Virus record (IMG/VR): IMGVR_UViG_3300025678_000001
Strand: one strand, 5' to 3'
DNA: 64,000 nucleotides
DNA from: a virus
Lineage: Duplodnaviria; Heunggongvirae; Uroviricota; Caudoviricetes
Numbering within the stretch: the first letter of the stretch is position 1; the number at the start of each line of letters is the position of its first letter. This document shows, in pieces, positions 6,151 through 47,970 of this stretch. A program made the translations under genes and the position numbers. The notes below the pieces were generated by a model that was given only the letters and a program-made list of their open reading frames with translations, was not told the DNA's origin and did not search any database.

Positions 6151-6300
6151 AGGATACGAAATATTGGATAACCCTGAAACACAGGGTGTTTGAGTTTAGA
6201 AAGTCTACAATATAATATACGGATTTTCTACAGGAAAAACAAAAAACCACCCCTGGAAAGAGGTGGTTTGTCATGCATCCGTACCGTGTGTTGCGATGGG

Positions 6301-6762
6301 TTAGCTTTCTGTGTCTACAAGCTTGAAGAGAACATGGTAGTTTTCAGTGGTTTCTACTTTCTCAAGAGCTTTAAGACTGATCTTTTTATACTCAATCTCC
6401 TTCTCTGTCTGCAGAAGTTCGTTGAACTCTGTTTCAAATGCTTGAAAATCAGGGTTTTTGATCATCGGTAACTGGTTATCCTCAGTAGAGTTTGGATCTT
6501 CTACCAGGGCAGGAATACTGATGTCTCCAGTCATGTCGTTTGGTTTACCGTACTTTTTGATCAGTTCATTCCTGAACTCGTCAATAGCAGCTTTTTCAAC
6601 CGCAGTCTTTTTAGCCAGATCGGTCAGCCAGTATTTGGTTACCAGCGGAAGCTTCTCGTTCAAAATACCTGTCTGGAGAACCTGACCGGTAGCAAGACGA
6701 ACTCCGTTTAACTCTGCATCCAGGTTATAGATTTCGTACAGTTTAAGGGTGATTTTTTCCAT
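6301..6762 (-). CDS. hypothetical protein
   Basis: 153-aa ORF flanked by TTGTAGAAC motif regions. Confidence 0.5.
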   Translation of the reverse strand: MEKITLKLYEIYNLDAELNGVRLATGQVLQTGILNEKLPLVTKYWLTDLAKKTAVEKAAIDEFRNELIKKYGKPNDMTGDISIPALVEDPNSTEDNQLPMIKNPDFQAFETEFNELLQTEKEIEYKKISLKALEKVETTENYHVLFKLVDTES

Positions 6763-23315: not shown

Positions 23316-26069
23316 TTAACTCTTTTTGGATTTAGGCTTCTCTCCTACTACCGGATTCTGAAGTTTTGTCTTTTCTATCTGAAGTCTTTTATCAGCAATC
23401 TCTTTATTGGCTTGAATCTTCTCACGTTCCAGGTTCATCTTTTGCTGGTTACTCATGTTCTTGTTAACCTCCTGCTCACGCTTGAAGTTCATCTGCTCAC
23501 GATAGTTATCCTGCTCCTGGATCTTTTCCAGGGCATCCTGATAATCACTCTGAGCGTTCTGGTTAAGATCTACAGCAGCCCCGTAGCCGGCAGAACGGAT
23601 CTCAGCTACAGTGATGTCCTTCTTGATCATCTTATCGTCACGATTAGCCATAAACTCGCGTTCTGCAGCCTTATCACGTTCCTGAGAAGCAATCAGTTGC
23701 TGCTGCAGTTCTTGTTGATGCTGCTGATCAGCCAGTCTGATGGCGTTAGTCTTCTCTTCAGAAGTCTTCAGGGCATGGTTGATCTCAGCCAGAGAGTCAG
23801 CCTTGATGATGTTACCCAGATCATAGATGGAAGCACCGGCTGTATTGTTGTTCAGAGCCAGCTGTTTAAGCTGCTCCATGATGTTCCGGGAGTTTACCCT
23901 GGTAGTACAGAAGATGTTCAGATCGCGTAAAAGAAGACTTGTACCATTAATCTGGAAGTTGACCTTCTCATCGGACTGAGTAATGTACTGAAGACGGATA
24001 GAGGGCTTCTTAGAATGGTAGTACTGGGCCAGGTCGGTCCTCATCTGGTGAACCCGCGGCATTAGGTAGTCAGAGTGCTGAGTAAACAGGTGTTCTGTCT
24101 GAGCATAGGAGGCTGATTGAGCCATCTCAAGACCTTTTGCAGAATCCTGTACTCCAAGCTGCTGACCCATCCGCTGGGGGTTCAGACCAATGACCTCAAA
24201 GGCCTGGTTCTTAAAGTAGGTAGCCAGGTTAATACGGGAAAGCAGACGGTTTGTCTGTTCCAGGTTTAGTACCTGGTAGTGTTGGAAGGAAAGGGCGTTC
24301 TCAGTGTTTGTAATCGTACTGTCCAGGGGCAGCATCTGGAAGTTCTTCATAGCCACATAGGCTTTGGCCAGATTATTTTTACCCCAGTCTTCTCCCATAG
24401 AGTGACGAGGTAAAGCGTTCTGGTCCAAAAGAATAACCGTACCAAGCTCATCTACAAGGATGTCAGCTATCTGGTTATTCACTATGTTGTAGCCTATCTG
24501 GTATGGCTTCATCAGATCGACCAGTGAAATACTGCGGGTGTTACGATCACCGAATACAGCACCTTCCACTGGGAGTTTGCAGCCATAGAGAGTACTATCT
24601 CCTTTAAACTGGAAAGGAATAGGGCCCGGTTTACCACCGTTCAGTCCGAGATAGATCGGATTGATACCACCAGGGTTATTCATACCCCAGAAACTTGGCC
24701 TATTAGGACCAATCTTGATACCACCATAGGTCTCGTTAATCCAGATCCAGTCAATATGTTCACCAAAGATCAGGTTGTCCTTACTCTTCTGTTTGTATAA
24801 TGCAGTGTTATAGAGAGGTTTATCTGTAACTTTGTAGGTCTCATCTACAATATCCTGAATAAGTTCTCCTTCTTCAGTGATCTTGGTAAGGTGTCCTACC
24901 TTCCGCTGACTTTTCCAGTAAGCAGTGGTTACCCTTAAAAGGTGCTGCTTTCCGAAGTCCTGAGTATCTTCTGAGTCGGCCAGGATCCACTCTACAATGT
25001 CCCCGGTACCAAACTTAGTATCATAGAGACTCATGAACTGACGGTAAGCCAGGGAGGGCATCTGAGTATTCCACTCATGAGATCTTGTAGGATCATAGTA
25101 GGTACCATCATTCTGATATCCTTGTACAGCATAGCCGGCAGATCTTACCGGATAGATAGTCTCGATGGCTTCCAGTTGCTCCTGGGTCATCATCCAGCCA
25201 TACTTGTCAATGATATCAGCAGCACTGGCCAGGTCAATCTTACCTACCCAGGAACCCTGGGAAATATACCTGGTATCCGGTGATTTATGGTAGAAAGTCA
25301 GTAGAGGATTCCATAACTCAATTTCATAGTCATCCTCCATCATCCGGAAGTGCCAGAACTCACGGTCGGTGATCAACATGTCACGGAAACCGCGTTCTTC
25401 CAGCTCATCCATACGGAAACGTTCCTCATCAACGCGTTTTTGGTGAGCAGCCCACTCTTCGATCATACTACGATAATCCTTCTTGAAAAAACCCTCAATC
25501 TCCGGGAGCTTCTTGAGGTTATCTGGTTGCATGGCGGTTTGAGCCTCCTCACTGTCCAGTTCAAGGCCTTGGGACATCATCTGAAGCGTCATCTTACGTT
25601 GAGCGTTTTGAAGTAAAACCTGCTCGATCTGAGCACGTTTCTCTTCAAGCATCTCGTTGTAAGATAGGTCATCTACCGCCCGGAACATGATCTTTGAGGT
25701 TCTCTGGGCAAACTCGTTACACAGAACGTTGATTACGTTCGGAATGATCGGATAAAACTTGAGCTCTAACGCTGATGAGTCCTCTTTGGTAAGAGTTTCG
25801 ATTAGGTCAGCCATCTCGTTGTCTTCCTCAACTATGTAGTCAGATTTATCAATAATCCCTTTGGCCAGCTTGTAGTTCTTCATGAGTCTGCGAGCATTAC
25901 GTCTCAGCATCTTCATACCCTGCCACTCGAGCCAGTCAAGGTTCCATGCACGCCACTCATCATCCTTTTCCTTTGCAGGAAGGAACTGGATAGGTTGGGT
26001 CAGAGTACCCATCTTGTTGTACTCAACCTTCTTTCCGGCTTTTAGGTCAAGGGCGTTATATATTTGCAT
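23316..26069 (-). CDS. putative portal protein
   Basis: 917-aa ORF directly downstream of the terminase-like gene; C-terminal Q/E-rich coiled coil. Confidence 0.5.
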   Translation of the reverse strand: MQIYNALDLKAGKKVEYNKMGTLTQPIQFLPAKEKDDEWRAWNLDWLEWQGMKMLRRNARRLMKNYKLAKGIIDKSDYIVEEDNEMADLIETLTKEDSSALELKFYPIIPNVINVLCNEFAQRTSKIMFRAVDDLSYNEMLEEKRAQIEQVLLQNAQRKMTLQMMSQGLELDSEEAQTAMQPDNLKKLPEIEGFFKKDYRSMIEEWAAHQKRVDEERFRMDELEERGFRDMLITDREFWHFRMMEDDYEIELWNPLLTFYHKSPDTRYISQGSWVGKIDLASAADIIDKYGWMMTQEQLEAIETIYPVRSAGYAVQGYQNDGTYYDPTRSHEWNTQMPSLAYRQFMSLYDTKFGTGDIVEWILADSEDTQDFGKQHLLRVTTAYWKSQRKVGHLTKITEEGELIQDIVDETYKVTDKPLYNTALYKQKSKDNLIFGEHIDWIWINETYGGIKIGPNRPSFWGMNNPGGINPIYLGLNGGKPGPIPFQFKGDSTLYGCKLPVEGAVFGDRNTRSISLVDLMKPYQIGYNIVNNQIADILVDELGTVILLDQNALPRHSMGEDWGKNNLAKAYVAMKNFQMLPLDSTITNTENALSFQHYQVLNLEQTNRLLSRINLATYFKNQAFEVIGLNPQRMGQQLGVQDSAKGLEMAQSASYAQTEHLFTQHSDYLMPRVHQMRTDLAQYYHSKKPSIRLQYITQSDEKVNFQINGTSLLLRDLNIFCTTRVNSRNIMEQLKQLALNNNTAGASIYDLGNIIKADSLAEINHALKTSEEKTNAIRLADQQHQQELQQQLIASQERDKAAEREFMANRDDKMIKKDITVAEIRSAGYGAAVDLNQNAQSDYQDALEKIQEQDNYREQMNFKREQEVNKNMSNQQKMNLEREKIQANKEIADKRLQIEKTKLQNPVVGEKPKSKKS

Positions 26070-26074
26070 GGTTC

Positions 26075-26380
26075 TTAGTTATTTGTATACAGAGAGGGTG
26101 TAGGATGATCAGACCCCTGAGCTGTTAGTGAGCTTAAAGCTTGAACATTGTTACTATACAGAATACCACTATCTCTGGGCTGCCAGGGAGCAGTTGTAGG
26201 AGTATTCCACGGATGATTAGGAGCAGCCGTACCTGGTATATTGATCGGCAGAAGAGGTTTGATACCCAGTGATTCTTCTTCTTTTAACAGCAGAATAGCT
26301 TCTTCCAGAGTAAGGGAGCTTTCTTTGATCAAACGAGAAAGTATAGCTACTTTCTGGGAATGTAATGTACTGTTTTCCAT
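26075..26380 (-). CDS. hypothetical protein
   Basis: 101-aa ORF between the terminase-like and portal-like genes. Confidence 0.4.
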   Translation of the reverse strand: MENSTLHSQKVAILSRLIKESSLTLEEAILLLKEEESLGIKPLLPINIPGTAAPNHPWNTPTTAPWQPRDSGILYSNNVQALSSLTAQGSDHPTPSLYTNN

Positions 26381-28578
26381 TATCTTAGGTTTTTAAAGGG
26401 TGTTCTGGGTGGTGTCATACTTTTGGAACCCCCTTCTGATGACCCAATATGTCTAAAAGGTCTCCAATTTAATTTACTGATTTTTTGGGAGTTCTCCAAC
26501 TTTTGTTCCACTCGTTCTACACGTTTGGTGTATCCACGGTTGGCTTGTTGAACCTTGGCAAAGGCTATGAGTGCACAGAAAGATACCAGACGGTCCACGT
26601 TGAGTCCATCATAGTAAGCTTTCATCTCTTTGAGCAGCATTGGATCCGGAATACGTTCCACGCCGTAGGTTGTCCTTACAATGGTCCCGTCTTCCTTTGT
26701 TTCGTGGTCCAGTTCTTCCTTGGTAAACTCGATACCGTAGCTTAGGATGTTACCCTTGAATAGGGTCCCTACGTTTTTCCAACCATATTCCTGGAAGACG
26801 TTTCGGTTGGCTCCCAGGTCCTTCAGAAACAGAATCATGTCTTTTGGCACCAGGTACCGCTGTTTCTTTTTAGAGATCATGTACTGGATAAATAAGGCCA
26901 CGTTATTCTCCACAACTGTCCAAGCATTATACCACTCGATCATCAACTCTAGGCGTTCATGAGTTTTGTTGATGTCATCAAAACGTCCACACCAGCTAGC
27001 CACGATCTTATCCCGCTCTATGGTGTTCTCTACTTTACCATCACCATAGTCCTTAATGACTTCAACCGGGTTTTTATAGATGTAGATCGAGCATAGGGAA
27101 TCTGAGGTTGTAGTCTTACCTTCTCCTACCGGGTCGACAGACGCGTAGTACATTCCAAAAGGAGGGTCTTTAACCGGTCGTTCGTAGATACAGATGACCC
27201 CTTCTTTGTTTTCCATCTTCTTTGGTACAGGAAACTCCATGATCGGAGTCTTCCTGGAGGGAGAGTCAATGATCTTCCCTTCAGCATTTCTGGAGAGCTC
27301 TAGGTATTCAACAGGGTACTCTTTATCAGCGATCCGTCGTTCTTGTTGTGCAACTAGGTGTGCAGGGAATACGCTTACTTTACGCGTATCAAACGCTTCC
27401 TCGATGTTTCTGGGGTGCTGAGAAAGCTCTAGCTGGTAAGCTTGAGGGGTAAGATCTCGTTTGGCCTTCTCAAAGTACTTATCCAGGGCCTCTAAGGCTT
27501 TTTCTACCAGAGAGTTTCCAAATTCATCCATGTATGGAGGCATGGACCACTGTTCTGGTATAAAGAGCCCGGTTACTCTGATTGTACCATTCTTGTCTAC
27601 AAGATTGGACTCTACACCATAGAACCCGTTTTCTTCCGGATGCATAATGTATTCTTTCATGGGTTCACACTGATCCAGGTCACCCACGGAACCAGCAGCT
27701 ATGAACTGACCGGTAATGATATGACCAGACTTCAGGGCCGGCTTGATATAACCATAGGTCAGGTCCATCTTGGGTGCGATACCGCCCTCTTCATGGAAGA
27801 AATAAGTTACCGGTCCACCAACGCCATTTGTAGGATCCTTTTCAAAAGAGTAACCAGCAATGGTACTCTTAAGACCCTTATAGGTATCACGGCCATTTAT
27901 ACGTACTTTGATCTGCTGGTTCCAGGCAAATACCTTATCAGGTTCGGCCGGTCGGTACCAGGCAGTATGCTCGTTCAAGAAGTTTTTGTATTCATCCAGG
28001 AACTTCCAGGAGCCTTTCTCGTTTATATAGTCTTTCAGTGAGGCACCGATCTTACAGATACTACCGGATTCAAACCAGTAAGTATTGATCAGTTTTGCCA
28101 TATGAAAGTAAGAAGAAGCTATCTGACGCTTCTTTAGGATGATAGCATGTTTGTAGTTCAGCTCAGCCAGATGTTCATACAAGGCCATATGATACTGGGC
28201 ATCACGAACCTTGGCAAAGTCAAACTTCTTTTCTTCCTTGTCATAGATAGGAAGAAAGTTGAGCCACATGTAGTAGTCCCTGGTTATATACCAGGTCTTT
28301 GACTTGTTCTTTACAATGATGCCGTTTCTGCACTTATTCTTCTGGTCATCCCAGTAGGTCATGAAGTCTTTGCTCTTCAGTGGAGCATTGCAGTAGTAAC
28401 CCTGGGTCTGAAACTTACGAGCCTCAGCATTAAAGATCCTGGTTACTTCATCAAACTCATACTTGCCTGGTTCTTTGAATAGAAAGAACAAGAAATCCCG
28501 GAACTCCTCCCGGGTATTAAAAGTGGTTACGAACCAGTTACCGTTTTCGTAGGTAGGGACTTGTTTAAAGGGGGTCAT
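26380..28578 (-). CDS. putative terminase large subunit
   Basis: 732-aa ORF; C-terminal nuclease-like segment (YYASVDPVGEG...SLCSIYIYK...TVVENN); position upstream of the portal. Confidence 0.55.
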   Translation of the reverse strand: MTPFKQVPTYENGNWFVTTFNTREEFRDFLFFLFKEPGKYEFDEVTRIFNAEARKFQTQGYYCNAPLKSKDFMTYWDDQKNKCRNGIIVKNKSKTWYITRDYYMWLNFLPIYDKEEKKFDFAKVRDAQYHMALYEHLAELNYKHAIILKKRQIASSYFHMAKLINTYWFESGSICKIGASLKDYINEKGSWKFLDEYKNFLNEHTAWYRPAEPDKVFAWNQQIKVRINGRDTYKGLKSTIAGYSFEKDPTNGVGGPVTYFFHEEGGIAPKMDLTYGYIKPALKSGHIITGQFIAAGSVGDLDQCEPMKEYIMHPEENGFYGVESNLVDKNGTIRVTGLFIPEQWSMPPYMDEFGNSLVEKALEALDKYFEKAKRDLTPQAYQLELSQHPRNIEEAFDTRKVSVFPAHLVAQQERRIADKEYPVEYLELSRNAEGKIIDSPSRKTPIMEFPVPKKMENKEGVICIYERPVKDPPFGMYYASVDPVGEGKTTTSDSLCSIYIYKNPVEVIKDYGDGKVENTIERDKIVASWCGRFDDINKTHERLELMIEWYNAWTVVENNVALFIQYMISKKKQRYLVPKDMILFLKDLGANRNVFQEYGWKNVGTLFKGNILSYGIEFTKEELDHETKEDGTIVRTTYGVERIPDPMLLKEMKAYYDGLNVDRLVSFCALIAFAKVQQANRGYTKRVERVEQKLENSQKISKLNWRPFRHIGSSEGGSKSMTPPRTPFKNLR

Positions 28579-33533: not shown

Positions 33534-33920
33534 CTAGGCAGAAAGCTGTTCCTTTTCTAATAAGACAATGATGTCTTCTGGGAGATTGTGCTTCTTATGA
33601 TGCTTGTAGAAATAGTTCACCAGGGCTTTGTGGTAGACCTCCTGGGCATGCGTGAGAGGTTTGGTATCCTCATGAAGTTCATAGGTAACTTTTACCGGTA
33701 TGGTCTGGTACTGCTTTCGTACAACCAGCTCATATTCTTCCAGATCTTTTAAGGTCTCACTGAGGACTTTGACAGATATATCCGGGAGCTTGCGTTTGAG
33801 TTCAGAGAATCTCATGGGGCCCTGGCGTAGGTGCCAGATAACTACTGCTCTCCACTTTTTGCCCCACATCTCGGAGGCTAGGTTCATCAGGTAAGCTGCT
33901 AACATATGATTACAACACAA
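33534..33920 (-). CDS. HxlR-family winged-helix transcriptional regulator
   Basis: WGKKWRAVVIWHLRQGPMRFSELKRKLPDISVKVLSETLKDLEEYELVVRKQYQTIPVKVTYELHE matches the HxlR/DUF24 signature (WxxxILxxLxxGPxRFxEL...IxxKxLxxxLKxLExxGLVxR...P..VEYxLT). Confidence 0.8.
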   Translation of the reverse strand: MCCNHMLAAYLMNLASEMWGKKWRAVVIWHLRQGPMRFSELKRKLPDISVKVLSETLKDLEEYELVVRKQYQTIPVKVTYELHEDTKPLTHAQEVYHKALVNYFYKHHKKHNLPEDIIVLLEKEQLSA

Positions 33921-34048
33921 TAAACAAAACTCAGCAGTAGTAGTTGTCTTTAGAGTGGACTATTTCTCACTGAGGTAAGTAGATTACTAAGGGGTAATAC
34001 TTAGTAAAATTAATCAGTGTCAGCTTATATACAACTGATTCTTATCAG

Positions 34049-34120
34049 TTTCCTCCCCTGGGTACGATCCAGGAACTGCAGGGCCAAAACCTGCCGTGAT
34101 ACCAGTTTCACCAAAAGGAA
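34049..34120 (-). tRNA. tRNA-Gln(UUG)
   Basis: T-arm CCTGG/ATCGTAC/CCAGG, anticodon arm GCAGG-UUUUGGC-CCUGC, acceptor pairs with two GU. Confidence 0.6.
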
Positions 34121-34126
34121 ATAGTG

Positions 34127-34198
34127 GGTGTAAGGACGGTACCGACCCGTCTTCCCCAGGTCCACAACCTGGTGCATCACCTTAATGCTTCAAACACC
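34127..34198 (-). tRNA. tRNA-His(GUG)-like, encoded G-1/C73, two U-U mismatches in the acceptor stem
   Basis: anticodon arm CCAGG-UUGUGGA-CCUGG; T-arm GACGG/GTCGGTA/CCGTC; extra 5-prime G opposite C73. Confidence 0.45.
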
Positions 34199-34203
34199 AT
34201 AAG

Positions 34204-34275
34204 AGCCTTCTACCGGAACCGACCCGGTAAGTCCTGTTTACAAGACAGGCAGTTTTCCAGTTAGCTTAAGAAGGC
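34204..34275 (-). tRNA. tRNA-Thr(UGU)
   Basis: perfect 7-bp acceptor (GCCTTCT/AGAAGGC), T-arm ACCGG/GTCGGTT/CCGGT, anticodon loop CTTGTAA. Confidence 0.65.
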
Positions 34276-34280
34276 CTGTG

Positions 34281-34353
34281 TGGTACAGAGTGGTTACGAT
34301 CCACTTCCCCCGGTTTTTCAGACCGGTGCTTCTACCAAGTTAGCTTCTGCACC
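34281..34353 (-). tRNA. tRNA-Phe(GAA)
   Basis: T-arm AGTGG/ATCGTAA/CCACT, anticodon arm CCGGT-CTGAAAA-ACCGG, acceptor with one GU. Confidence 0.65.
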
Positions 34354-34428
34354 AAGTAGGACTTTGTCAAAGCCGGCCACTCCTGCACAAAGAGGAGACC
34401 AGCTTGATCAGGTGTCCTGAAACCTTTG

Positions 34429-34501
34429 AGGTGGGTGGGAAACTCGAAGCCCCGTATGACTGTTTTGCGGACAGTTGCCTTACCATCTTGGCGAACCCAC
34501 C
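34429..34501 (-). tRNA. tRNA-Cys(GCA)-like (C33, weak T-stem)
   Basis: acceptor GGTGGGT/ACCCACC, D-arm GCC-AAGATGGTAA-GGC, anticodon loop CCGCAAA, T-loop TTCGAGT. Confidence 0.4.
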
Positions 34502-34507
34502 ATGTTG

Positions 34508-34579
34508 TCTAGCTGATCTGGATCGAACAGACGTAATCTTGCTCCCAAAGCAAGTGCCTTACCGCTAGGCTACAGCTAG
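34508..34579 (-). tRNA. tRNA-Pro(UGG)
   Basis: acceptor CTAGCTG/CAGCTAG, D-arm GCC-TAGCGGTAA-GGC, anticodon arm CTTGC-TTTGGGA-GCAAG, T-loop TTCGATC. Confidence 0.7.
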
Positions 34580-34617
34580 AAAAAGAAAACCCCCAAACCG
34601 TTTTACCAGTCTGGGGG
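34578..34617 (-). terminator. rho-independent terminator (minus strand)
   Basis: CCCCCA...TGGGGG hairpin followed on the minus strand by TTTTCTTTTTCT. Confidence 0.5.
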
Positions 34618-34757
34618 TTAGTATTTTGATTTTGTACTTCTTAACTCGTTGCTATGATCACTGTACATACACCAACACAACTACCCCCGCAGACCGGACA
34701 AGGTTGCGTAAACTGGGTAAACTGTGTATGGGTAGTAATCTTCTTCATCTACAATAC

Positions 34758-34789
34758 AAAGATACTACTTTTTGTAGAACTACCAAAAT
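34758..34789 (-). promoter_or_regulatory. minus-strand promoter (-33 TTTTG, N19, -7 TATCTTTG) overlapping the TTGTAGAAC box
   Basis: reverse complement of caaagata (34758-65) and caaaa (34785-89); ~130 nt upstream of the 34578-34617 terminator. Confidence 0.45.
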
Positions 34790-34797
34790 CTTTTTGC

Positions 34798-34870
34798 ACG
34801 GGCCCAGGGAAACGATCCCTGTCCATCCGAGGTTTTGGAGACCTGGTGCATACCATTATGCTGGCCCATG
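34798..34870 (-). tRNA. tRNA-Trp(CCA)-like
   Basis: T-arm CAGGG/ATCGTTT/CCCTG; anticodon loop CTCCAAA with a 27-43 mismatch; acceptor with GU. Confidence 0.45.
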
Positions 34871-34875
34871 TATGT

Positions 34876-34959
34876 GGGAAGTGAGTGAGTCGAACACCCC
34901 GAGTCCGTAGACAGCTGGTTTACAATCAGCCCCGCTACCACTTACGGTATAACTTCCCC
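34876..34959 (-). tRNA. tRNA-Tyr(GUA), class II (long variable arm)
   Basis: acceptor GGGAAGT/ACTTCCC, anticodon loop TTGTAAA, T-arm GGGTG/TTCGACT/CACTC, 84 nt. Confidence 0.55.
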
Positions 34960-35040
34960 TATTTCGCATATCCAGTCAGTAGTCTTTCCGTCAAAAGCTA
35001 TCAACCAGAGTATGCCGTTCATATTAACGATGTACATGCA

Positions 35041-35123
35041 GAGAGCAGAGTAGTCGAAACCCACCCCGGTTAAGGAGCCCACTGTTTAGCAAACAGGTCT
35101 GACCACCTAGTCAGTTTACTCTC
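35041..35123 (-). tRNA. tRNA-Ser(GCU)-like, class II, T-arm poorly formed
   Basis: anticodon arm CCTGT-TTGCTAA-ACAGT, D-arm CTGAC-TAGGTG-GTCAG, acceptor GAGAGTA/TGCTCTC. Confidence 0.4.
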
Positions 35124-35129
35124 TAGATG

Positions 35130-35221
35130 CGGAAGGCAGAGGAACCGACCCCCATGCCCGTGTAAGGGGCAGCCTAGTTTTCAAGACTAGTCGCCACTCC
35201 AATGTAGCTGCATTACCTTCC
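35130..35221 (-). tRNA. tRNA-Ser(UGA), class II
   Basis: acceptor GGAAGGT/GCCTTCC, anticodon arm CTAGT-CTTGAAA-ACTAG, variable-arm hairpin, T-loop GTCGGTT. Confidence 0.6.
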
Positions 35222-35226
35222 ATGTA

Positions 35227-35313
35227 GTACCGGTGGAGGGGGATGATCCCACACGATCCTTTCGGATCACAAGATTTTAAGTCTTGCGTGTCTGCCTATT
35301 TCACCACACCGGC
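35227..35313 (-). tRNA. tRNA-Leu(UAA), class II
   Basis: anticodon arm CAAGA-CTTAAAA-TCTTG, variable-arm hairpin GATCC-GAAA-GGATC, acceptor GCCGGTG/CACCGGT. Confidence 0.55.
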
Positions 35314-35394
35314 AGTTGTCTGGACTCTCACCATAGCAGTCAGGGATTTCAGGTCCCCAGGTGTGCATTCAATTCGTCCCACCTTCTGACATCG

Positions 35395-35477
35395 TACCTC
35401 TGACAGGCCTCGAACCTGCACCCGTTTCCGGACTAGATCCTAAGTCTAGCGTGTCTCCCAAGTTTCACCACAGAGGT
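35395..35477 (-). tRNA. tRNA-Leu(UAG), class II
   Basis: perfect acceptor ACCTCTG/CAGAGGT, T-arm GCAGG/TTCGAGG/CCTGT, anticodon arm CTAGA-CTTAGGA-TCTAG. Confidence 0.65.
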
Positions 35478-35518
35478 ATAAAAACCAAAATCCCGACCAG
35501 GAAAACCTAATCGGGATT
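35478..35518 (-). terminator. rho-independent terminator (minus strand)
   Basis: 8-bp stem AATCCCGA/TCGGGATT followed on the minus strand by TTTGGTTTTTAT. Confidence 0.5.
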
Positions 35519-35673
35519 GGAAACTTTTTCAGTAACTACATACCTCACCCGATTGGTTTATGCAACCAATACAGACTGAGTGAGGATAGAGTAAACTGCT
35601 TCATAAAAATTTGGTGGATGGTCACCCCACTTGTTTTAATCTAAACAAGAAATCATCGGTCGGTTACGTTAAC

Positions 35674-35735
35674 TTCTCAGCTTGAACGCCTGTCGTGTGA
35701 CCTTTCAGCTTTCACGCCTGTTAAGAGGCTTTACC
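35674..35735. repeat. imperfect direct repeat CAGCTT(G/T)(A/C)ACGCCTGT x2, spaced 29 nt
   Basis: cagcttgaacgcctgt and cagctttcacgcctgt inside the short promoter-to-terminator unit. Confidence 0.35.
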
Positions 35736-35748
35736 GACCATCACAATA

Positions 35749-35780
35749 CAAATATACAACTCTTTTGGAGTTCTACAAAA
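35749..35780 (-). promoter_or_regulatory. minus-strand promoter (-33 TTTTG in TTTTGTAGAAC, N19, -7 TATATTTG)
   Basis: reverse complement of caaatata (35749-56) and caaaa (35776-80); transcribes a ~230-nt ORF-free segment ending at the 35478-35518 terminator. Confidence 0.45.
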
Positions 35781-35788
35781 TATTTTTG

Positions 35789-35864
35789 TGGAGACTCTGG
35801 AACTTGAATCCAGCTGATATCCTGCTTGCAAGGCAGGTGTCCACTCCTGGCAGACCCAGTCCCC
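35789..35864 (-). tRNA. tRNA-Ala(UGC)
   Basis: T-arm CTGGA/TTCAAGT/TCCAG, anticodon arm CCTGC-CTTGCAA-GCAGG. Confidence 0.6.
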
Positions 35865-35870
35865 ATGCTG

Positions 35871-35942
35871 TACTCTCGGGTGGTAACGATCCACCTACCT
35901 TCTCCGTATCAGGGAGCTACTCTACCATTGAGCTACGAGAGT
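35871..35942 (-). tRNA. tRNA-Ile(GAU)
   Basis: perfect acceptor ACTCTCG/CGAGAGT, T-arm GGTGG/ATCGTTA/CCACC, anticodon loop CTGATAC. Confidence 0.65.
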
Positions 35943-35947
35943 ATAAG

Positions 35948-36020
35948 TTGATCCGGGTGGGTACGATCCACCGACCTTGACGTTATGAGCGTCCTGCTAC
36001 TACCACTGAGCTACGGATCA
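35948..36020 (-). tRNA. tRNA-Met(CAU)
   Basis: perfect acceptor TGATCCG/CGGATCA, T-arm GGTGG/ATCGTAC/CCACC, anticodon loop CTCATAA. Confidence 0.6.
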
Positions 36021-36025
36021 GTATG

Positions 36026-36099
36026 CGGTCCGTACCGGGATCAAACCGGTCATCTCTGGCGTGACAAGCCAGCGTCTTCATCGTGCAGACCCACGGACC
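36026..36099 (-). tRNA. tRNA-Asp(GUC)
   Basis: perfect acceptor GGTCCGT/ACGGACC, T-arm ACCGG/TTTGATC/CCGGT, anticodon arm CTGGC-TTGTCAC-GCCAG. Confidence 0.7.
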
Positions 36100-36105
36100 A
36101 AATAG

Positions 36106-36180
36106 TACCCCCACCGGAGATCGAATCCGGTTCTTCACCGTGAAAGGGTGGCGTCCTGTACCTTCTAGACGATAGGGGCA
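36106..36180 (-). tRNA. tRNA-Glu(UUC)
   Basis: the sequence GCCCCTATCGTCTAGAAGGTACAGGACGCCACCCTTTCACGGTG...TTCGATC... closely parallels canonical bacterial tRNA-Glu. Confidence 0.65.
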
Positions 36181-36259
36181 AATTGGAGGCTTAGGACTCC
36201 ATCATCCTCCTTGAGATCCCGGCGTCCTTCTACTTTTTATAGTACGGATCTCTTTTACG

Positions 36260-36331
36260 AGCAGCATCTCGGGGTCGATCCGAGTTCTCCGGTTTGGAAG
36301 ACCGGCACATCAGCCCTAATGCTTATGCTGC
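36260..36331 (-). tRNA. tRNA-Gly(UCC)
   Basis: perfect acceptor GCAGCAT/ATGCTGC, T-arm CTCGG/ATCGACC/CCGAG, anticodon arm CCGGT-CTTCCAA-ACCGG. Confidence 0.7.
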
Positions 36332-36445
36332 ATGAAAGAACAGAGCTCCAGGGGAATCTCACCCGTCTGTCCGGAACAGACCTCACTGCCTTTTACTATG
36401 TACGGTATTTACTCGTACACAACAGCTACCTGAAGATGATCTTGG

Positions 36446-36515
36446 TTGCGGGGCCGGGATTTGAACCCGGGAAACACGGCTTATGAGACCGGTCGGCCAC
36501 CTGGCTCCCCACAAT
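36446..36515 (-). tRNA. tRNA-like gene, anticodon arm unresolved
   Basis: canonical T-arm CCGGG/TTCAAAT/CCCGG and acceptor pairing TGTGGGG/CCCCGCA, but the interior is 2 nt short of a standard cloverleaf. Confidence 0.3.
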
Positions 36516-36522
36516 AAAACTG

Positions 36523-36595
36523 CGGACTCTCCGGGGAACGATCCTGGAACCTTCACCTTAACAGGGTGCCGCTCTACCAGTTGAGCTAAGAGTCC
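36523..36595 (-). tRNA. tRNA-Asn(GUU)
   Basis: perfect acceptor GGACTCT/AGAGTCC, D-arm AGCTCAACTGGTAGAGCG, anticodon loop CTGTTAA, T-loop ATCGTTC. Confidence 0.7.
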
Positions 36596-36596
36596 G

Positions 36597-36668
36597 TATA
36601 CTTAGAAGGATTCCAACCTTCACTTTCAGTTTAGAAGACTGACGTGCTAAGCATTACACCATAAGTAC
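36597..36668 (-). tRNA. tRNA-Arg(UCU)
   Basis: T-arm GAAGG/TTGGAAT/CCTTC, anticodon arm TCAGT-CTTCTAA-ACTGA. Confidence 0.65.
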
Positions 36669-36676
36669 ATATCTGG

Positions 36677-36747
36677 AAGACCCGGAGGTAGTCGAAACCC
36701 CATCATCACGTTCGTAGCGTGATATCCTTCCATTGAACGACGGGTCC
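36677..36747 (-). tRNA. tRNA-Arg(ACG)
   Basis: acceptor GGACCCG/CGGGTCT, T-arm GGGGT/TTCGACT/ACCTC, anticodon arm TCACG-CTACGAA-CGTGA. Confidence 0.65.
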
Positions 36748-36802
36748 TTGTTAAGACCGTCTTCGGTAATATGTACTGTAGTGTGTCATGTCTTCTGTCT
36801 GG

Positions 36803-36876
36803 TAGCTCCTATCCGGGTCGAACGGATGCATTCTCGGTATGTAACACCGAAGCTCTACCACCTGAGCTAAGGAGCT
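36803..36876 (-). tRNA. tRNA-Val(UAC)
   Basis: perfect acceptor AGCTCCT/AGGAGCT, D-arm TAGCTCAGGTGGTAGAGCT, T-arm ATCCG/TTCGACC/CGGAT, anticodon loop GTTACAT. Confidence 0.7.
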
Positions 36877-36882
36877 ATTTGA

Positions 36883-36932
36883 AGCTCATTATTGAGCTTG
36901 AATGAGCTGAATATTGAGCTTAATCGGCTCAT
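36883..36932. promoter_or_regulatory. palindromic operator AGCTCA-N4-TGAGCT plus three phased TGAGCT half-sites
   Basis: AGCTCATTATTGAGCT at 36883-98; TGAGCT again at 36903, 36915; GGCTCA at 36927; lies between tRNA-Val and tRNA-Lys. Confidence 0.4.
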
Positions 36933-36940
36933 ATATCTTG

Positions 36941-37012
36941 TTCCCCCGTCCGGTAACGATCCGGACCCCACGGATTAAAAGTCCGTTGCCTACACCTGTT
37001 TGCTACGAGGGA
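36941..37012 (-). tRNA. tRNA-Lys(UUU)
   Basis: T-arm TCCGG/ATCGTTA/CCGGA, anticodon arm ACGGA-CTTTTAA-TCCGT, acceptor with one GU. Confidence 0.65.
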
Positions 37013-37050
37013 AAATAAAAAACCCCGGTAGCTGGTGCTCCGGGGTTCTT
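37011..37050. terminator. bidirectional hairpin terminator (strong T-tract on the minus strand)
   Basis: CCCCGG-N11-CCGGGG hairpin flanked by AAAATAAAAAA on one side and TTCTTGTTATCTT on the other. Confidence 0.5.
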
Positions 37051-37194
37051 GTTATCTTAAACTTACTTCTAGTTATCCTAGATCAGTACAGACAAATGAA
37101 CCCACGGAGCGTACCTTCTCATCCGCTCTGCGTTCCATAATGCCTATATTGACTGTAAGTAACATTTGCTGTGTAATAGTTTTATGTAGATCTC

Positions 37195-37235
37195 TGACCT
37201 ACAATACAAATATACGTTAGTTCTACAACATGACC
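37195..37235 (-). promoter_or_regulatory. conserved CTACAATACAAATATAC / GTTCTACAA box (candidate minus-strand promoter at the head of the tRNA array)
   Basis: -7-like TATATTTG on the minus strand (reverse complement of 37207-14) adjacent to GTTCTACAA. Confidence 0.4.
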
Positions 37236-37239
37236 AAAT

Positions 37240-37563
37240 TTATTTCATCGTTTTTCCTGAGAAAAGTTTGTCGAGTTCTCGTACAGCAATGTTGTACGCT
37301 ATCTGTTGAGCTTTCATTTGATCTGTCATTGAGTTATCCAGATCTGGTTTCAGTTCCTCTTCGTTTATAGGATCTATACCTACAATATAAGGTGGAGCTT
37401 CAGACTTATTCCGGATAGTCTTCTTTACCTGCTTACGACGGTTATAGTGTTTCCGAGGAAGTGGAATCTTCCAACTCCACTCATCTTGTAACCCGATCAC
37501 TATGCTCTTCTTACCTTTCCCAGGTCCGTCAAACGCCGGGTTGTGTTCTACTTCTATCTTCAT
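37240..37563 (-). CDS. hypothetical protein
   Basis: 107-aa ORF. Confidence 0.45.
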   Translation of the reverse strand: MKIEVEHNPAFDGPGKGKKSIVIGLQDEWSWKIPLPRKHYNRRKQVKKTIRNKSEAPPYIVGIDPINEEELKPDLDNSMTDQMKAQQIAYNIAVRELDKLFSGKTMK

Positions 37564-37738
37564 GCTTCCTCATTTTTCTGCGGGTACGTTTTTTATCTTT
37601 GATTATAGTCTTTGCCGGGCCCCACATCAGATAGGTTTCAACTGCTCTTTTCCATGCTTGTTCTCTTTCCTGTTCTTCCTCAGTCATCAAGCGTATAGCA
37701 CCGGATCTGTCTTTAAGCATGAGTACCTTGTTACTCAT
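37529..37738 (-). CDS. hypothetical small basic protein
   Basis: 69-aa ORF. Confidence 0.3.
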   Translation of the reverse strand: MSNKVLMLKDRSGAIRLMTEEEQEREQAWKRAVETYLMWGPAKTIIKDKKRTRRKMRKHEDRSRTQPGV

Positions 37739-37932
37739 TTCTGACCCTTTTTGGTATTGGAGCCCGGGTAAGCCTCGTTGAGTACTATCATCTTCTTAAG
37801 CTCATCTCTGTGTACCCACTGTACCTTACCCACCGCGGCATAGTACTTCCAGGCCATCTCATCCTGGGGGAGATCACCATTCTTATACAGCTCGACCACA
37901 CAAGCCAGGTCTGTATAGACTACTTCACTCAT
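37735..37932 (-). CDS. hypothetical small protein
   Basis: 65-aa ORF in a tightly packed array. Confidence 0.35.
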   Translation of the reverse strand: MSEVVYTDLACVVELYKNGDLPQDEMAWKYYAAVGKVQWVHRDELKKMIVLNEAYPGSNTKKGQK

Positions 37933-38326
37933 TGGGATTAAGTTTTAAAAGTCGATCCGGATCAAATCCCCTGGTGGCAAATGCCTTGAACGTCTCAGCG
38001 TACTTGGGGGTCTCAGTTCTCTGAGGCATACCGTAGGTCTCCCCAGCCTGTACACAGAGAGCTGCTATCTTTCGTAGAAACTCCATGGTATACTGGTGTG
38101 GTACCGATCCCTTATACCATGCCTCTAATGCTTTGTTCAGGTTATACTGAATTGCAGTGATGGTATCTCCAACATGCAGGTCCTGGATCATATCCGGCCT
38201 GGTCGGGTCAGCTATCATCTTTTCCTGGAAGTCACGCTCGGTGTCAATCACCTTATAGACTTCTTCTCTGGTCATAACGGTCGGTTTTTGGTAGACCGGT
38301 TCAAGATCCTGATAGGTTGTATTCAT
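37925..38326 (-). CDS. hypothetical protein
   Basis: 133-aa ORF, last minus-strand gene before the divergent control region. Confidence 0.5.
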   Translation of the reverse strand: MNTTYQDLEPVYQKPTVMTREEVYKVIDTERDFQEKMIADPTRPDMIQDLHVGDTITAIQYNLNKALEAWYKGSVPHQYTMEFLRKIAALCVQAGETYGMPQRTETPKYAETFKAFATRGFDPDRLLKLNPNE

Positions 38327-38458
38327 AACTAAGCTGTTTTAAAAGTGAGGGGGCTTTTACACCCCCTTGGGCTAAGGCAGGTCTGTCAAGTTTCATGAGT
38401 TCTCTACAAATATAAGAAACCAGACTCCAGTTCTCCAAATATTTCTACAAGTTTCCTT

Positions 38459-38529
38459 GAGCTCATTTTTGAGCCCTAGAACATAGTAATAAGGAATACA
38501 TGGTATGTTATAGAGCTCAGATTTGAGCT
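38459..38529. promoter_or_regulatory. two palindromic operators AGCTCA-N4-TGAGC(C/T) in the divergent intergenic region
   Basis: AGCTCATTTTTGAGCC at 38459-74 and AGCTCAGATTTGAGCT at 38514-29. Confidence 0.4.
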
Positions 38530-38544
38530 CAAGGAAAGTTGGAC

Positions 38545-38640
38545 CCAGTTCTCCAAGATACCCCCCGGTACTATCGTAGTTTTACGATACCCCCCCCCGG
38601 GTAGTTTTACTAACCTCGGGTACCGGTATGGTTTGTAGGA
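38545..38640. repeat. C-tract direct repeats (GATACCCCCC(C)GG(G)TA...GTAGTTTTAC x2; C6, C9, C5-6 tracts)
   Basis: seen in the divergent intergenic region between the minus- and plus-strand gene blocks. Confidence 0.4.
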
Positions 38641-38736
38641 GAGGATGGGGGTACCTCTCCCTGATCAACCCCCGCCACCCTCCAAAGAACTCCGTACCCC
38701 CCTCAAATCCAGTGTTAACTTTTAAAAAAACTCTAT

Positions 38737-38973
38737 ATGGAGAAGAATCAAACACCGCTGAACAGCATCGCGCTGACTACCTTCAAACAACTGAACGGTA
38801 TTGACAAGATTTCCGTAAACAAGGGTGACGGACGCATGTTTGCGGACACCGTTGCGGGACGCCTCTACTTCGCGGAGAAGGTGGACCTGAATAAACCCCT
38901 GTTCGTGGCCAAGGGTCAGTACGACAGTTACTGGGTATTCAACCAGAACGTGAAACAGGTGGCAGAGCTTTAA
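38737..38973 (+). CDS. hypothetical protein (first plus-strand gene)
   Basis: 78-aa ORF downstream of the divergent intergenic region. Confidence 0.4.
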   Translation: MEKNQTPLNSIALTTFKQLNGIDKISVNKGDGRMFADTVAGRLYFAEKVDLNKPLFVAKGQYDSYWVFNQNVKQVAEL

Positions 38974-45870: not shown

Positions 45871-46434
45871 ATGGTATTCCAAAACATCAAGCTTAACCAT
45901 GAAGTAGATGACTTCAAGGAAGCACTCGGCCTTACAAAAAGTCTGATGAATGTCTGCAGGGAAAGGATCTTCTTCTCCCACTTTGCCAACAACTTGATGG
46001 CCATTGAGTTATATGACTCAAAGGATGCAGCACCTAATGACCTGACCACCATATCTGGTGACCTTCAGCGTTGTCTGAAGATGATAACAGATCCTCTGGA
46101 GTATGAAGCTACACTTCTGTTCTTTTCACACTACCACGAGATAGCAATCCATGCTTTCAAGTATTGGAAGCTTGAGCATGCAAAAGATTTGACTGTAGAA
46201 CAGAAACTCAAACTCTCCATTCTGAAGCTGACTTTAGAAGCAGCCAAGAAGAAGGTAGAGCGTGAGAACAAAGAAAACGTCCTTTTACTCAGCGACCTGG
46301 TACAACGCATAGATGTAGTAGTTAAATCTAACTATAACTTCAGTAAGTACATGAAAATCATAGGCATTCCCTATGACGATGGTACTTCCCAGGTGGACGA
46401 CATGCTGAAAGACCTCTTTAAAGATGGTGACTAA
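45871..46434 (+). CDS. hypothetical protein
   Basis: 187-aa ORF; TTGTAGAACT motif abuts its ATG (leaderless?). Confidence 0.5.
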   Translation: MVFQNIKLNHEVDDFKEALGLTKSLMNVCRERIFFSHFANNLMAIELYDSKDAAPNDLTTISGDLQRCLKMITDPLEYEATLLFFSHYHEIAIHAFKYWKLEHAKDLTVEQKLKLSILKLTLEAAKKKVERENKENVLLLSDLVQRIDVVVKSNYNFSKYMKIIGIPYDDGTSQVDDMLKDLFKDGD

Positions 46435-46453: not shown

Positions 46454-46524
46454 TTTGTTTACACTTTGTAGAACTAAGAAAAACGTCTACATTTGTTCTA
46501 CATCTTTAAAGTTTACATGTTACA
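46454..46524 (+). promoter_or_regulatory. iteron-like cluster of GTT(C)TACA repeats with a TTGTAGAAC box upstream of the wHTH gene
   Basis: GTTTACA, TTGTAGAAC, GTCTACA, GTTCTACA, GTTTACA, GTTACA within 70 bp. Confidence 0.35.
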
Positions 46525-46808
46525 TGAAAAAGAATCCCCGGTTGTCCGGTGGGTTTGGAATGGTATCCAAGACAGTAATGTCAGATCCAGAACTCTCCAT
46601 GAGAGAGAAGGGTCTGTATGCTTACCTGGCTACATATGCTGATAGTGTAACAAACGAGCTGACAGTAAGTGTAAACAGGATGTGTGCTGAGCTTGGTATT
46701 ACCCAGGCCACCGTTAAAAGATCTTTGAGTTTACTTGAGAAGAAAGGTATCATAACCAGAGTTGACAAACGTGCATGCACTGTAAGAACTACAGTGCTTT
46801 TAAAATAA
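46524..46808 (+). CDS. winged-helix DNA-binding protein (replisome-organiser/DnaD-like N-terminal domain?)
   Basis: MKKNPRLSGG...LYAYLATYADSVTNELTVSVNRMCAELGITQATVKRSLSLLEKKGIITRV wHTH pattern; iteron-like GTTCTACA repeats upstream. Confidence 0.5.
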   Translation: MKKNPRLSGGFGMVSKTVMSDPELSMREKGLYAYLATYADSVTNELTVSVNRMCAELGITQATVKRSLSLLEKKGIITRVDKRACTVRTTVLLK

Positions 46809-47238: not shown

Positions 47239-47970
47239 ATGAAACATTCTAAAGTCGTAGGCCAGATCTACGAAACAACCAATTATGAAATGTTCAAAAA
47301 ACGCAGTGACAACCGTCAGCTGAAAGAACACATCGTAAAAGAAAGAATGGAAAGCATCAAGCAGATTGGCCAACAAGATGCTATCAAGGTTTCTAAAGAC
47401 TTTATGGTAGACGACGGCCAACATCGGTTGGAAGCTTGCAGAAGGCTTCAAAAACCGGTAAAATATACTTTCCAGGAAGAGCCGCTCAGTACTCACGAGC
47501 TGGCCACCTTGCAGACACAATCTTCCCGGTGGAAGGTTGAAGACCACGCTCAATCTTTCCTGTCAAAAGGAATTGAAGACTACAGACTTTATAACCTGTT
47601 TGTAAAACTCTATCCTGAGTTCAACCACAGTGTTGCGTTAGTTCTTCTGACCAATACGATCAGCAGAAACCGTCACACTGAAGAACAATTCAAGATCGGA
47701 ACATTCAAAGTGAAAAGCTATACGAAAGCCGTTAAGCTGGCAGATCAGCTTAGAAAAATAGGTGAGTACTATGAAGGCTATGTTCGTAATGGATTTATCC
47801 AGGCATTTCTGACTTTGGCTGAACATCCGGACTTTGAGTTCAACCGGTTACTCCGGAAGATTCCTAAGCGTAGGAAAGAACTGATGGACTTCTCTAAAGC
47901 AGAGGATTACATCCAAACACTGGAACATATGTACAACTGGAAAGAAACCAAGAAAGTACAGTTTACATAA
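47239..47970 (+). CDS. ParB-like nuclease domain protein
   Basis: DGQHRLEA motif (ParB/Srx DGxHR) in a 243-aa ORF. Confidence 0.5.
   Translation: MKHSKVVGQIYETTNYEMFKKRSDNRQLKEHIVKERMESIKQIGQQDAIKVSKDFMVDDGQHRLEACRRLQKPVKYTFQEEPLSTHELATLQTQSSRWKVEDHAQSFLSKGIEDYRLYNLFVKLYPEFNHSVALVLLTNTISRNRHTEEQFKIGTFKVKSYTKAVKLADQLRKIGEYYEGYVRNGFIQAFLTLAEHPDFEFNRLLRKIPKRRKELMDFSKAEDYIQTLEHMYNWKETKKVQFT

Follow-up and report, generated by a model that had tools for sequence, protein, structure and literature searches.

The 64,000-nucleotide stretch of IMG/VR virus record IMGVR_UViG_3300025678_000001 that was analysed here at its full length (the window) is part of the genome of an uncultured, freshwater crAss-like phage of 133 kb. 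In the gap between its leftward and rightward genes it carries a dyad element that holds two similar 16-bp palindromes, and this element is the subject of the present analysis. The minus-strand block at 1–33 kb consists of structural genes, including those of the large terminase (26380–28578), the portal (23316–26069) and the major head protein (20278–21897), and the terminase is ~25% identical to terminases of crAss-like phages of Bacteroides, Flavobacterium and Cellulophaga. CrAss_Ring_1 and CrAss_Ring_2 are encoded by the same genome, immediately left of the window. Contigs of 133 kb from several metagenomes were 100% identical to the window over the fetched stretches that were compared (7.2 and 4.4 kb), and a megablast search with the window returned no close cultured relative. 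To the right of an array of transfer RNA (tRNA) genes follow four small open reading frames (ORFs) on the minus strand, a divergent intergenic region of 410 bp (38327–38736) and a long block of small plus-strand ORFs. The intergenic region is bounded by the last minus-strand gene (edge at 38326) and by the first early gene, which encodes 78 amino acids (aa) on the plus strand (38737–38973).

The palindromes and the dyad element

The window contains four palindromic sites. Two of them lie in the divergent intergenic region: site 1, AGCTCATTTTTGAGCC (38460–38475; AGCTCA-TTTT-TGAGCC; extended form GAGCTCATTTTTGAGCCC, 38459–38476), and site 2, AGCTCAGATTTGAGCT (38514–38529; AGCTCA-GATT-TGAGCT; extended form GAGCTCAGATTTGAGCTC, 38513–38530), which starts 54 bp past the start of site 1. 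The other two, AGCTCATTATTGAGCT (36883–36898; AGCTCA-TTAT-TGAGCT) and AGCTGAATATTGAGCT (36905–36920; AGCTGA-ATAT-TGAGCT), lie in a spacer of the tRNA array. An earlier sequence-only reading of this DNA had described three of the four, omitting AGCTGAATATTGAGCT; their sequences and coordinates were confirmed, as was the placing of two of them in the divergent region and one inside the tRNA array, in the spacer between tRNA-Val and tRNA-Lys. With at most one mismatch, AGCTCA-N4-TGAGCT matches the window four times (starting at 36883, 36905, 38460 and 38514) versus 0.18 matches expected, a number reached by none of 100 shuffles, and the looser core GNTCANNNNTGANC matches six times versus 1.08 expected. 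Chance occurrence of the palindromes is ruled out by this excess over expectation and shuffles, together with the once-only match of the element pattern described below. Searches of Rfam found no known RNA family for the palindromes; the matches consisted of tRNAs and of weak microRNA-like matches that merely reflect the hairpin.

Both intergenic palindromes are enclosed by a larger inverted repeat that the sequence-only reading had missed. The whole dyad element spans 38448–38541 (~94 bp) and is composed of two 38-nt inverted arms (38448–38485 and 38504–38541), which are 84% complementary, and an 18-nt centre. From the centre outward, each arm consists of TATGTT, 7 nt, TCA-N4-TGA with GC-rich outer bases, and (A/C)AGGAAAGTTG. 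The hexamer TATGTT is −10-like and is present in both orientations: on the plus strand (38504–38509) it is located 7 nt before the TCA of site 2 and faces the early genes, and its mirror copy on the minus strand (38480–38485) is located 7 nt before the TCA of site 1 and faces leftward. The general half-element can be described as a −10-like hexamer, 6–7 nt, and then a 16–18-bp pseudo-palindrome RGNTCA-N4-TGANCY. Between the two intergenic palindromes of the window A+T amounts to ~70%, and across the window and its relatives the 36–46-bp centre between the sites contains 70–78% A+T versus ~56% for the genome. A single hairpin (−26.2 kcal/mol, z = −8.8) is predicted for the dyad as single-stranded DNA. 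A telomere-resolution or recombination site was considered and dropped, since the dyad centre is not palindromic in the window.

Several other features adjoin the dyad. It is bracketed by an exact 12-nt direct repeat, CCAGTTCTCCAA (38427–38438 and 38545–38556), of which the left copy forms the −33 region (TTGGAGAACTGG, minus strand) of a leftward host-type promoter and the right copy is not followed by a −7 box. Between the dyad and a conserved leader, the window (38556–38625) and its relatives contain two to four C-run motifs of the form CCCCC(C)GG(G)T(A), and TTTTAC often comes after them. A 133-kb contig of the same genome from the Joint Genome Institute stops inside the C9 stretch at 38597, where the assembly probably broke.

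Conservation of the element in related phages

Relatives were gathered from freshwater samples by means of homologues of the 78-aa protein, the double-site DNA pattern, homologues of the winged-helix protein HTH_36 described below, and a relaxed pattern scan. A motif search in related phages, which had been suggested along with the sequence-only reading, recovered the element in 14 further lineages: L027, L028/L031, L035, L032/L033, L001/L036, L029/L030, L047, L046, L049, L050, L051, L044/L048, L042/L052 and L159. These lineages stem from independent metagenomes. Wider pattern scans of viral contigs returned mostly chance matches among those listed, and at least one new relative (L159). The match of L043 to the double-site pattern proved to be a coincidence, located in an unrelated viral contig within a coding tandem repeat of GAGCTCACACCTGAGCT-rich units (5350–6400). 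A regular expression for the generic element gave one match in the 64-kb window and one in each relative locus, excepting L042/L052, which carry different hexamers, and gave no match in L004, L026 and L315. In L031 (7797–7896), a contig of the European Nucleotide Archive, the archived sequence shows Ns in place of the dyad centre.

Relative to its flanks, the element shows purifying selection. In four close pairs, identity of the element versus that of the remaining intergenic sequence was 0.87 versus 0.61, 0.87 versus 0.65, 0.95 versus 0.80, and 0.91 versus 0.46, and this difference holds although the flank includes a strongly conserved leader. The leader is a non-coding block of ~100 nt (GTAGnAGAGGATGnnGGTACCTCTCC ... 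GAGCTCCGCACCCCCCTnAAATCCAGTGTTAACTT; 38636–38736, plus strand) just upstream of the 78-aa gene, and is conserved in all relatives (alignment A4), including those without a dyad at this position. A conserved RNA structure in the leader was considered, and RNAalifold gave no convincing structure for 38630–38739.

Within the element, site 1 is identical in L027, L028, L035 and L046, and the invariant columns of alignment A2 are G.G.TCA....TG...C at site 1 and ACATA at the minus-strand hexamer. Hexamer variants in the relatives include TATGTT, TATGAT, TATGTA, TATATT, TATTAT and TATTAA, with T1, A2 and T3 invariant and T6 usual; they are positioned on the inner side, 6–7 nt from TCA, in every lineage except L042/L052. 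The distance between the two sites ranges from 54 to 63 bp across elements.

Half-site variation

Half-site statistics were derived from 30 sites (60 half-sites) in 15 elements. The core TCA-N4-TG is kept across all 30 sites and TCA at positions −5 to −3 is nearly invariant, while G is found at −7 in 56 of the 60 half-sites, −8 is A or G, and any base occurs at −6 (C 39, A 9, G 8, T 4). Half-site centres are 10 bp apart; a spacing of ~10 bp is the usual geometry for a helix-turn-helix (HTH) dimer. The outer bases of the half-sites vary (AGCTCA, GGATCA, GGGTCA, GGTGCA) from lineage to lineage and also within a site, from one half to the other. Symmetry is perfect in 9 of the 30 sites, and 22 sites have five or six of the six symmetric positions, versus only three or four of the six pairs in the remaining 8. 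Hybrid sites were found in L032 (GGATCA....TGCACC), L046 (GTATCA....TGAGCC) and L049 (AGCTCA....TGCACC). A division into specificity classes, as in lambdoid immunity regions, was abandoned because these hybrids form a continuum of half-sites.

When the two sites of an element are compared with each other, their likeness as direct repeats equals or exceeds their likeness as inverted repeats in all 15 elements. Read on the early-gene strand, 20 of the N4 spacers are T-rich versus 3 A-rich ones, and the other 7 are palindromic. The variability of the half-sites and their direct-repeat likeness imply that half-sites are kept as sequence and not as pairing partners, and that the element has polarity; the strand polarity of N4 appears to fit transcription. 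Taken together, the half-site pattern favours recognition by a putative dimeric protein over a hairpin, and probably weakens hairpin and cruciform models. The general idea of dimeric HTH recognition in a control region, put forward in the sequence-only reading, is thus supported by the conservation, the core, the spacing and the asymmetric half-sites, whereas its attribution to an HxlR-family binder is not supported (see below).

The HTH_36 protein as candidate binder

The candidate binder that emerges from the comparison of loci is a 94-aa winged-helix protein encoded on the plus strand at 46524–46808 (ORF from 46455; Pfam HTH_36, E = 1.1e-10), which has its own host-type promoter (46465–46495), itself conserved. 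It had been proposed before, along with an HxlR-family regulator encoded on the minus strand at 33534–33920 (Pfam HxlR, E = 1.5e-21; probable ATG at the sixth codon of the listed ORF), and both family assignments hold. In all ten lineages in which this region is readable, HTH_36 is encoded downstream of the element at a distance of 1.5–8 kb and on the same strand; these include L042 and L044, both of which were found through the DNA pattern alone. P0018, one of 65 homologues recovered and 79% identical, is probably the L028-type protein. In the L004 contig, of which the 12-kb locus is without the element, the collection scan detected no HTH_36; the scan used two peptide patterns, so that a divergent copy could be missed. 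The earlier proposal of the winged-helix protein is therefore supported as far as co-occurrence goes, namely wherever the region is readable, and the protein may be regarded as a putative binder on this comparative evidence.

A possible link between protein and DNA was noticed in the HTH_36 helix. Across ten lineages, with two sister-pair contrasts, residue 3 after the conserved helix Arg is S, D or A in those confined to AGCTCA/GGCTCA half-sites and K or R in the others, a pattern that P0018 contradicts (see Discussion). A conserved 187-aa protein encoded just upstream of HTH_36 (45871–46434) accompanies it in 9 of 10 lineages, and no loader domain was found in this ORF. No further DNA-binding domain was detected among 30 neighbouring ORFs. 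The 133-aa gene adjoining the element was rejected as a regulator, being window-specific with no homologue in any relative.

Promoters and the palindromes of the tRNA array

Host-type (Bacteroidota sigma-A-like) promoters, for which the motif in this phage is TTTG(TAGAACT)-N-TAnnTTTG, were found six times in the window versus 1.3 expected, and all are in gene orientation (34787, 35779, 37238 and 38439 on the minus strand; 46465 and 55499 on the plus strand). The leftward promoter next to the dyad occupies 38439–38407 on the minus strand, with −33 TTTG (38439–38436), N21 and −7 TATATTTG (38414–38407). Site 1 is located ~20 bp upstream of its −33 region, and TCTACAAAnnTA is kept in relatives. 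To the right of the element, the first host-type promoter found on the plus strand is that at 46465. A Bacteroidota −7 box within the palindrome itself (CAnnTTTG) was also considered and rejected, since it occurs in many lineages but not all and has no matching −33.

The tRNA array is on the minus strand (34048–37012) and comprises 17 tRNAs according to ARAGORN, or 23 when extra tRNA-type matches in Rfam are included, two of which are below the family threshold. The second cluster of palindromes (36883–36931) is in the 63-nt spacer between tRNA-Val (36800–36876) and tRNA-Lys (36940–37012), both on the minus strand. It consists of two palindromes that start 22 bp apart, plus TGAGCT-N5-GGCTCA (36915–36931), and contains no TATGWT hexamer. 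Of the extra TGAGCT half-sites reported in this spacer, those at 36903 and 36915 are present, as is another at 36893, whereas that near 36927 is in fact GGCTCA (36926–36931), imperfect and in the opposite orientation. The cluster is located just past a strong terminator (37050–37013) and tRNA-Lys, ahead of 16 tRNA-type genes without a promoter of their own. Two control regions had originally been proposed, of which the intergenic one is upheld and the cluster in the tRNA array is without comparative support: none of the relatives obtained covers the spacer, and a function of the cluster rests on its sequence identity with the dyad sites.

The array (34580–37245) is also split by a thrice-repeated unit made of a host-type promoter, a non-coding leader of 150–260 nt and a strong intrinsic terminator. 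The promoters of these units (37238, 35779 and 34787) share a near-identical extended −7 region, GTATATTTGTATTGTAG, and the T-run of each terminator abuts the next tRNA (37050–37013 and tRNA-Lys, ~35525–35480 and tRNA-Leu, ~34625–34580 and tRNA-Pro). The units could represent small RNA genes among the tRNAs, or attenuator-type leaders.

Other features of the genome

The sequence ACTTTTAAAA was noted 10–17 nt ahead of several start codons (37943–37952 and 38337–38346 on the minus strand, 38718–38727 on the plus strand), at which no Shine-Dalgarno sequence is visible; together these observations fit a Bacteroidota host. The neighbourhood of the crAss ring genes contains three giant ORFs of 1860, 1816 and >1208 aa, located at 13892–21320 of L315, which represents this genome to the left of the window, and at 9300–14882 of the window. 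In the parts of these ORFs that were read, neither the DFDxD motif of the crAss virion RNA polymerase nor a sequence match in PDB was found. ARAGORN also identified a tmRNA-like gene in the related phage contig L004 (8821–9248).

Discussion

The interpretation that we favour, at a probability of roughly 40%, is that the palindromes may be the sites of a dimeric phage protein, most likely HTH_36, and that within the conserved, single-copy dyad of ~90 bp they may act as early-promoter operators. The inner hexamer resembles a −10 element, and the palindrome would occupy approximately −2 to +14 in an outward promoter, where repressor sites are classically found. Since the hexamer lies 6–7 nt inside the pseudo-palindrome, a bound dimer would cover the predicted outward transcription start, which falls near 38516 on the plus strand and near 38473 on the minus strand. 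The position of the hexamer and the layout of the rightward and leftward units together suggest that the element could be read as a back-to-back pair of early promoters with two operators, heading the block of small early ORFs. Rightward transcription would proceed into the 78-aa gene, through ~8 kb of small early ORFs and eventually into HTH_36, and leftward transcription would act in tandem with the host-type promoter at 38439. HTH_36, also made from its own host-type promoter, would then bind both sites and shut the early promoters, resulting in negative feedback and in an early-to-middle switch. The two or three extra sites in the tRNA spacer, with their 22-bp spacing, might let the same protein control the entry of transcription into the main tRNA block. 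The early operon of crAss001 also encodes a transcriptional regulator (PMC8375218).

This arrangement can be compared with tetR/tetA of Tn10, in which two 19-bp palindromic operators lie over overlapping divergent promoters. The element is similar in having two alike pseudo-palindromic sites of 16–18 bp in one short intergenic region, an outward −10-like hexamer beside each site, a half-site geometry that suits an HTH dimer, and a candidate regulator encoded in the unit that it would control. It differs in that the sites are 54–63 bp apart and not adjacent, that the whole region is itself a dyad, that it also occurs between co-directional genes, and that its hexamer is not the usual −7 box of the host. 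Moreover, the candidate regulator is a winged-helix protein of the HTH_36 type and not TetR.

Several observations weigh against the operator interpretation. In five lineages (L048–L052) the element is located between co-directional genes, 1–5 kb away from the strand switch, with its full dyad still kept, and its leftward half would there fire antisense; retention of the whole dyad in this context fits a function of the dyad as a whole, such as an origin or cooperative binding. The divergent promoters of the sequence-only reading are thus not the conserved context. L004 and L026 possess the same first early gene and leader without a dyad upstream, and the dyad is therefore not the sole way to express this gene. 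The hexamer TATGWT differs from the Bacteroidota −7 box TAnnTTTG of the other promoters of the phage. The co-occurrence of HTH_36 with the element is confounded by shared ancestry, and the covariation of helix and site is contradicted by P0018, which has K at the residue in question though L028 carries only AGCTCA/GGCTCA sites. Finally, HTH_36 finds its nearest cultured relatives, with 33–39% identity, in the N-terminal, origin-binding domains of DnaD-like helicase loaders and of replication initiators.

The co-directional context, the non-host hexamer, the absence of the dyad from L004 and L026 and the relatives of HTH_36 make a replication origin a serious rival, although on balance we consider it unlikely. 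According to this explanation, the dyad would be an AT-rich unwinding region with an inverted pair of initiator sites on its flanks, HTH_36 would be a stand-alone origin-binding domain, and the tRNA-spacer cluster, phased at 22 bp, would act as an accessory array of iteron-like sites. An organization of this kind is known from oriS of herpes simplex virus 1 (HSV-1), in which inverted initiator sites surround an AT-rich spacer (box I / AT / box II), and from phage origins bound by the N-terminal winged HTH of replisome organisers, as in lambda O, SPP1 G38P and DnaD-like loaders. The element resembles such origins in its two inverted sites, its AT-rich centre, its single copy per genome and the separate 22-bp-phased array, and its candidate binder has as best matches, in PHROG and among cultured phages, the N-terminal winged-helix domains of the initiators and loaders named above. 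The retention of the dyad between co-directional genes, the ParB-like gene adjoining HTH_36, and the coincidence of the element with the strand switch and GC-skew switch of the window would also be accounted for, although GC skew is confounded with coding strand. However, HTH_36 has only 94 aa and is without a loader or helicase domain, and the element is neither within nor beside the putative initiator gene but 1.5–8 kb from it with changing intervening genes, in contrast to the compact origin-initiator modules found in the matched Firmicutes phages. Neither −10-like hexamers at a fixed distance from the sites nor the strand polarity of N4 would be expected of an origin alone. Operator and origin are not mutually exclusive functions.

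A function that depends on structure is improbable. It would imply that the hairpin or cruciform serves as an early promoter for a virion RNA polymerase of the single-strand type, or forms 5' stem-loops in early transcripts, with a processing hairpin in the tRNA spacer. The early promoters of coliphage N4 are hairpins with 5–7-bp stems, 3-nt loops and conserved sequence, all in one direction, which are read by the virion RNA polymerase. Short inverted repeats are likewise found at the start of the early block in our phage, which encodes crAss-type ring proteins, and related phages inject an RNA polymerase that prefers single-stranded templates; that of phi14:2 transcribes single strands well but is poor at transcribing double-stranded DNA (bioRxiv 10.1101/2020.03.07.982082). 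The very stable single-stranded fold of the dyad, the folding of the tRNA-spacer RNA, which is better than that of shuffles (z = −2.9), and several lineage differences that keep complementarity (AGCTCA/TGAGCT versus GGATCA/TGATCC) are consistent with such a function. Nevertheless, 21 of the 30 sites are imperfectly symmetric and many pair poorly, including the 8 with only three or four pairs, and half-site identity is kept instead, unlike in N4: the hybrids of L032, L046 and L049 retain the half-site consensus and lose pairing, and direct-repeat likeness is at least equal to inverted-repeat likeness throughout. Pairing maintained by compensatory change in all members, which an N4-type element needs, was not seen across the 30 sites. 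In addition, the loops are not stable tetraloops, and the virion RNA polymerase signature DFDxD is missing from the parts of the giant ORFs that were read.

There is also little to commend the assignment of the sites to the HxlR regulator, which the sequence-only reading had offered as a binder and which would sense stress and repress or activate the divergent promoters. The protein is a clear member of its family, homologues are encoded 0.4–3.6 kb leftward of the element in L001, L029, L046, L047, L050 and L051, and the constancy of its recognition helix could match that of the TCA-N4-TGA core. However, within the syntenic stretches or fetched element neighbourhoods, which cover parts and not the whole of these genomes, no HxlR gene was present in L028/L031, L032, L035, L048, L049, L052 and L159. 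The regulator is therefore missing beside the element in at least seven lineages, and several of the lineages without it carry sites identical to those of the window. Its recognition helix (ISVKVLSExLKxLE) is essentially invariant whatever the site type. HTH_36 is most likely the better candidate binder, to judge from these comparisons.

Binding by another factor, be it the ParB-like protein encoded just downstream of HTH_36 (47239–47970; phrog_12305, E = 2.7e-33), the 65-aa neighbour (37735–37932) or a host protein, has a similarly slim chance. ParB-family proteins bind 16-bp palindromes, and in all junction-type relatives the element has the 65-aa gene beside it. Against this, the loci of L048, L049 and L052 yielded no ParB-like gene, and the protein shows 28% identity between the window and L028 despite the same sites. 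The 65-aa and 78-aa neighbours were rejected as regulators, since both genes persist in L004, the locus without the element, and neither protein has a detectable DNA-binding domain.

A more speculative proposal, to which we attach little weight, is that the dyad is an early promoter or entry site of the crAss-like virion RNA polymerase, or a transcription-activated origin that combines both roles. The polymerase could enter at a cruciform extruded by supercoiling or at an AT-rich centre that is locally melted, with TATGWT and the pseudo-palindromes to either side, and HTH_36 would be a specificity or shut-off factor. Early promoters of phi14:2 have no known common motif, and its middle promoters depend on the host RNA polymerase and are often located upstream of tRNA genes (bioRxiv 10.1101/2020.03.07.982082). 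The host-type motif of our phage, repeated and with copies inside the tRNA array, resembles these middle promoters; the palindromes, in contrast, are distinct from that motif, and those in the tRNA spacer are without it.

The crAss-like phages are among the most abundant phages known, and to our knowledge their early gene switching and the start of their replication are largely unknown. No description of such an element in crAss-like phages was found in the literature. The element most likely belongs to a known class of regulatory sites, here in phages with little-understood early control. The comparison of lineages corrects an attractive but wrong assignment of the sites to HxlR, and the freshwater clade offers a compact, single-copy and conserved 90-bp element together with a short list of candidate binders. 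Its natural variants (AGCTCA, GGATCA, GGGTCA and hybrid half-sites) constitute a ready-made mutational series for binding and reporter assays. Should the dyad turn out to be an entry site of the virion RNA polymerase, the clade would supply a conserved and testable early promoter motif for crAss-like phages; if the sites are operators bound by HTH_36, as we favour, the early control point of the clade would be defined.

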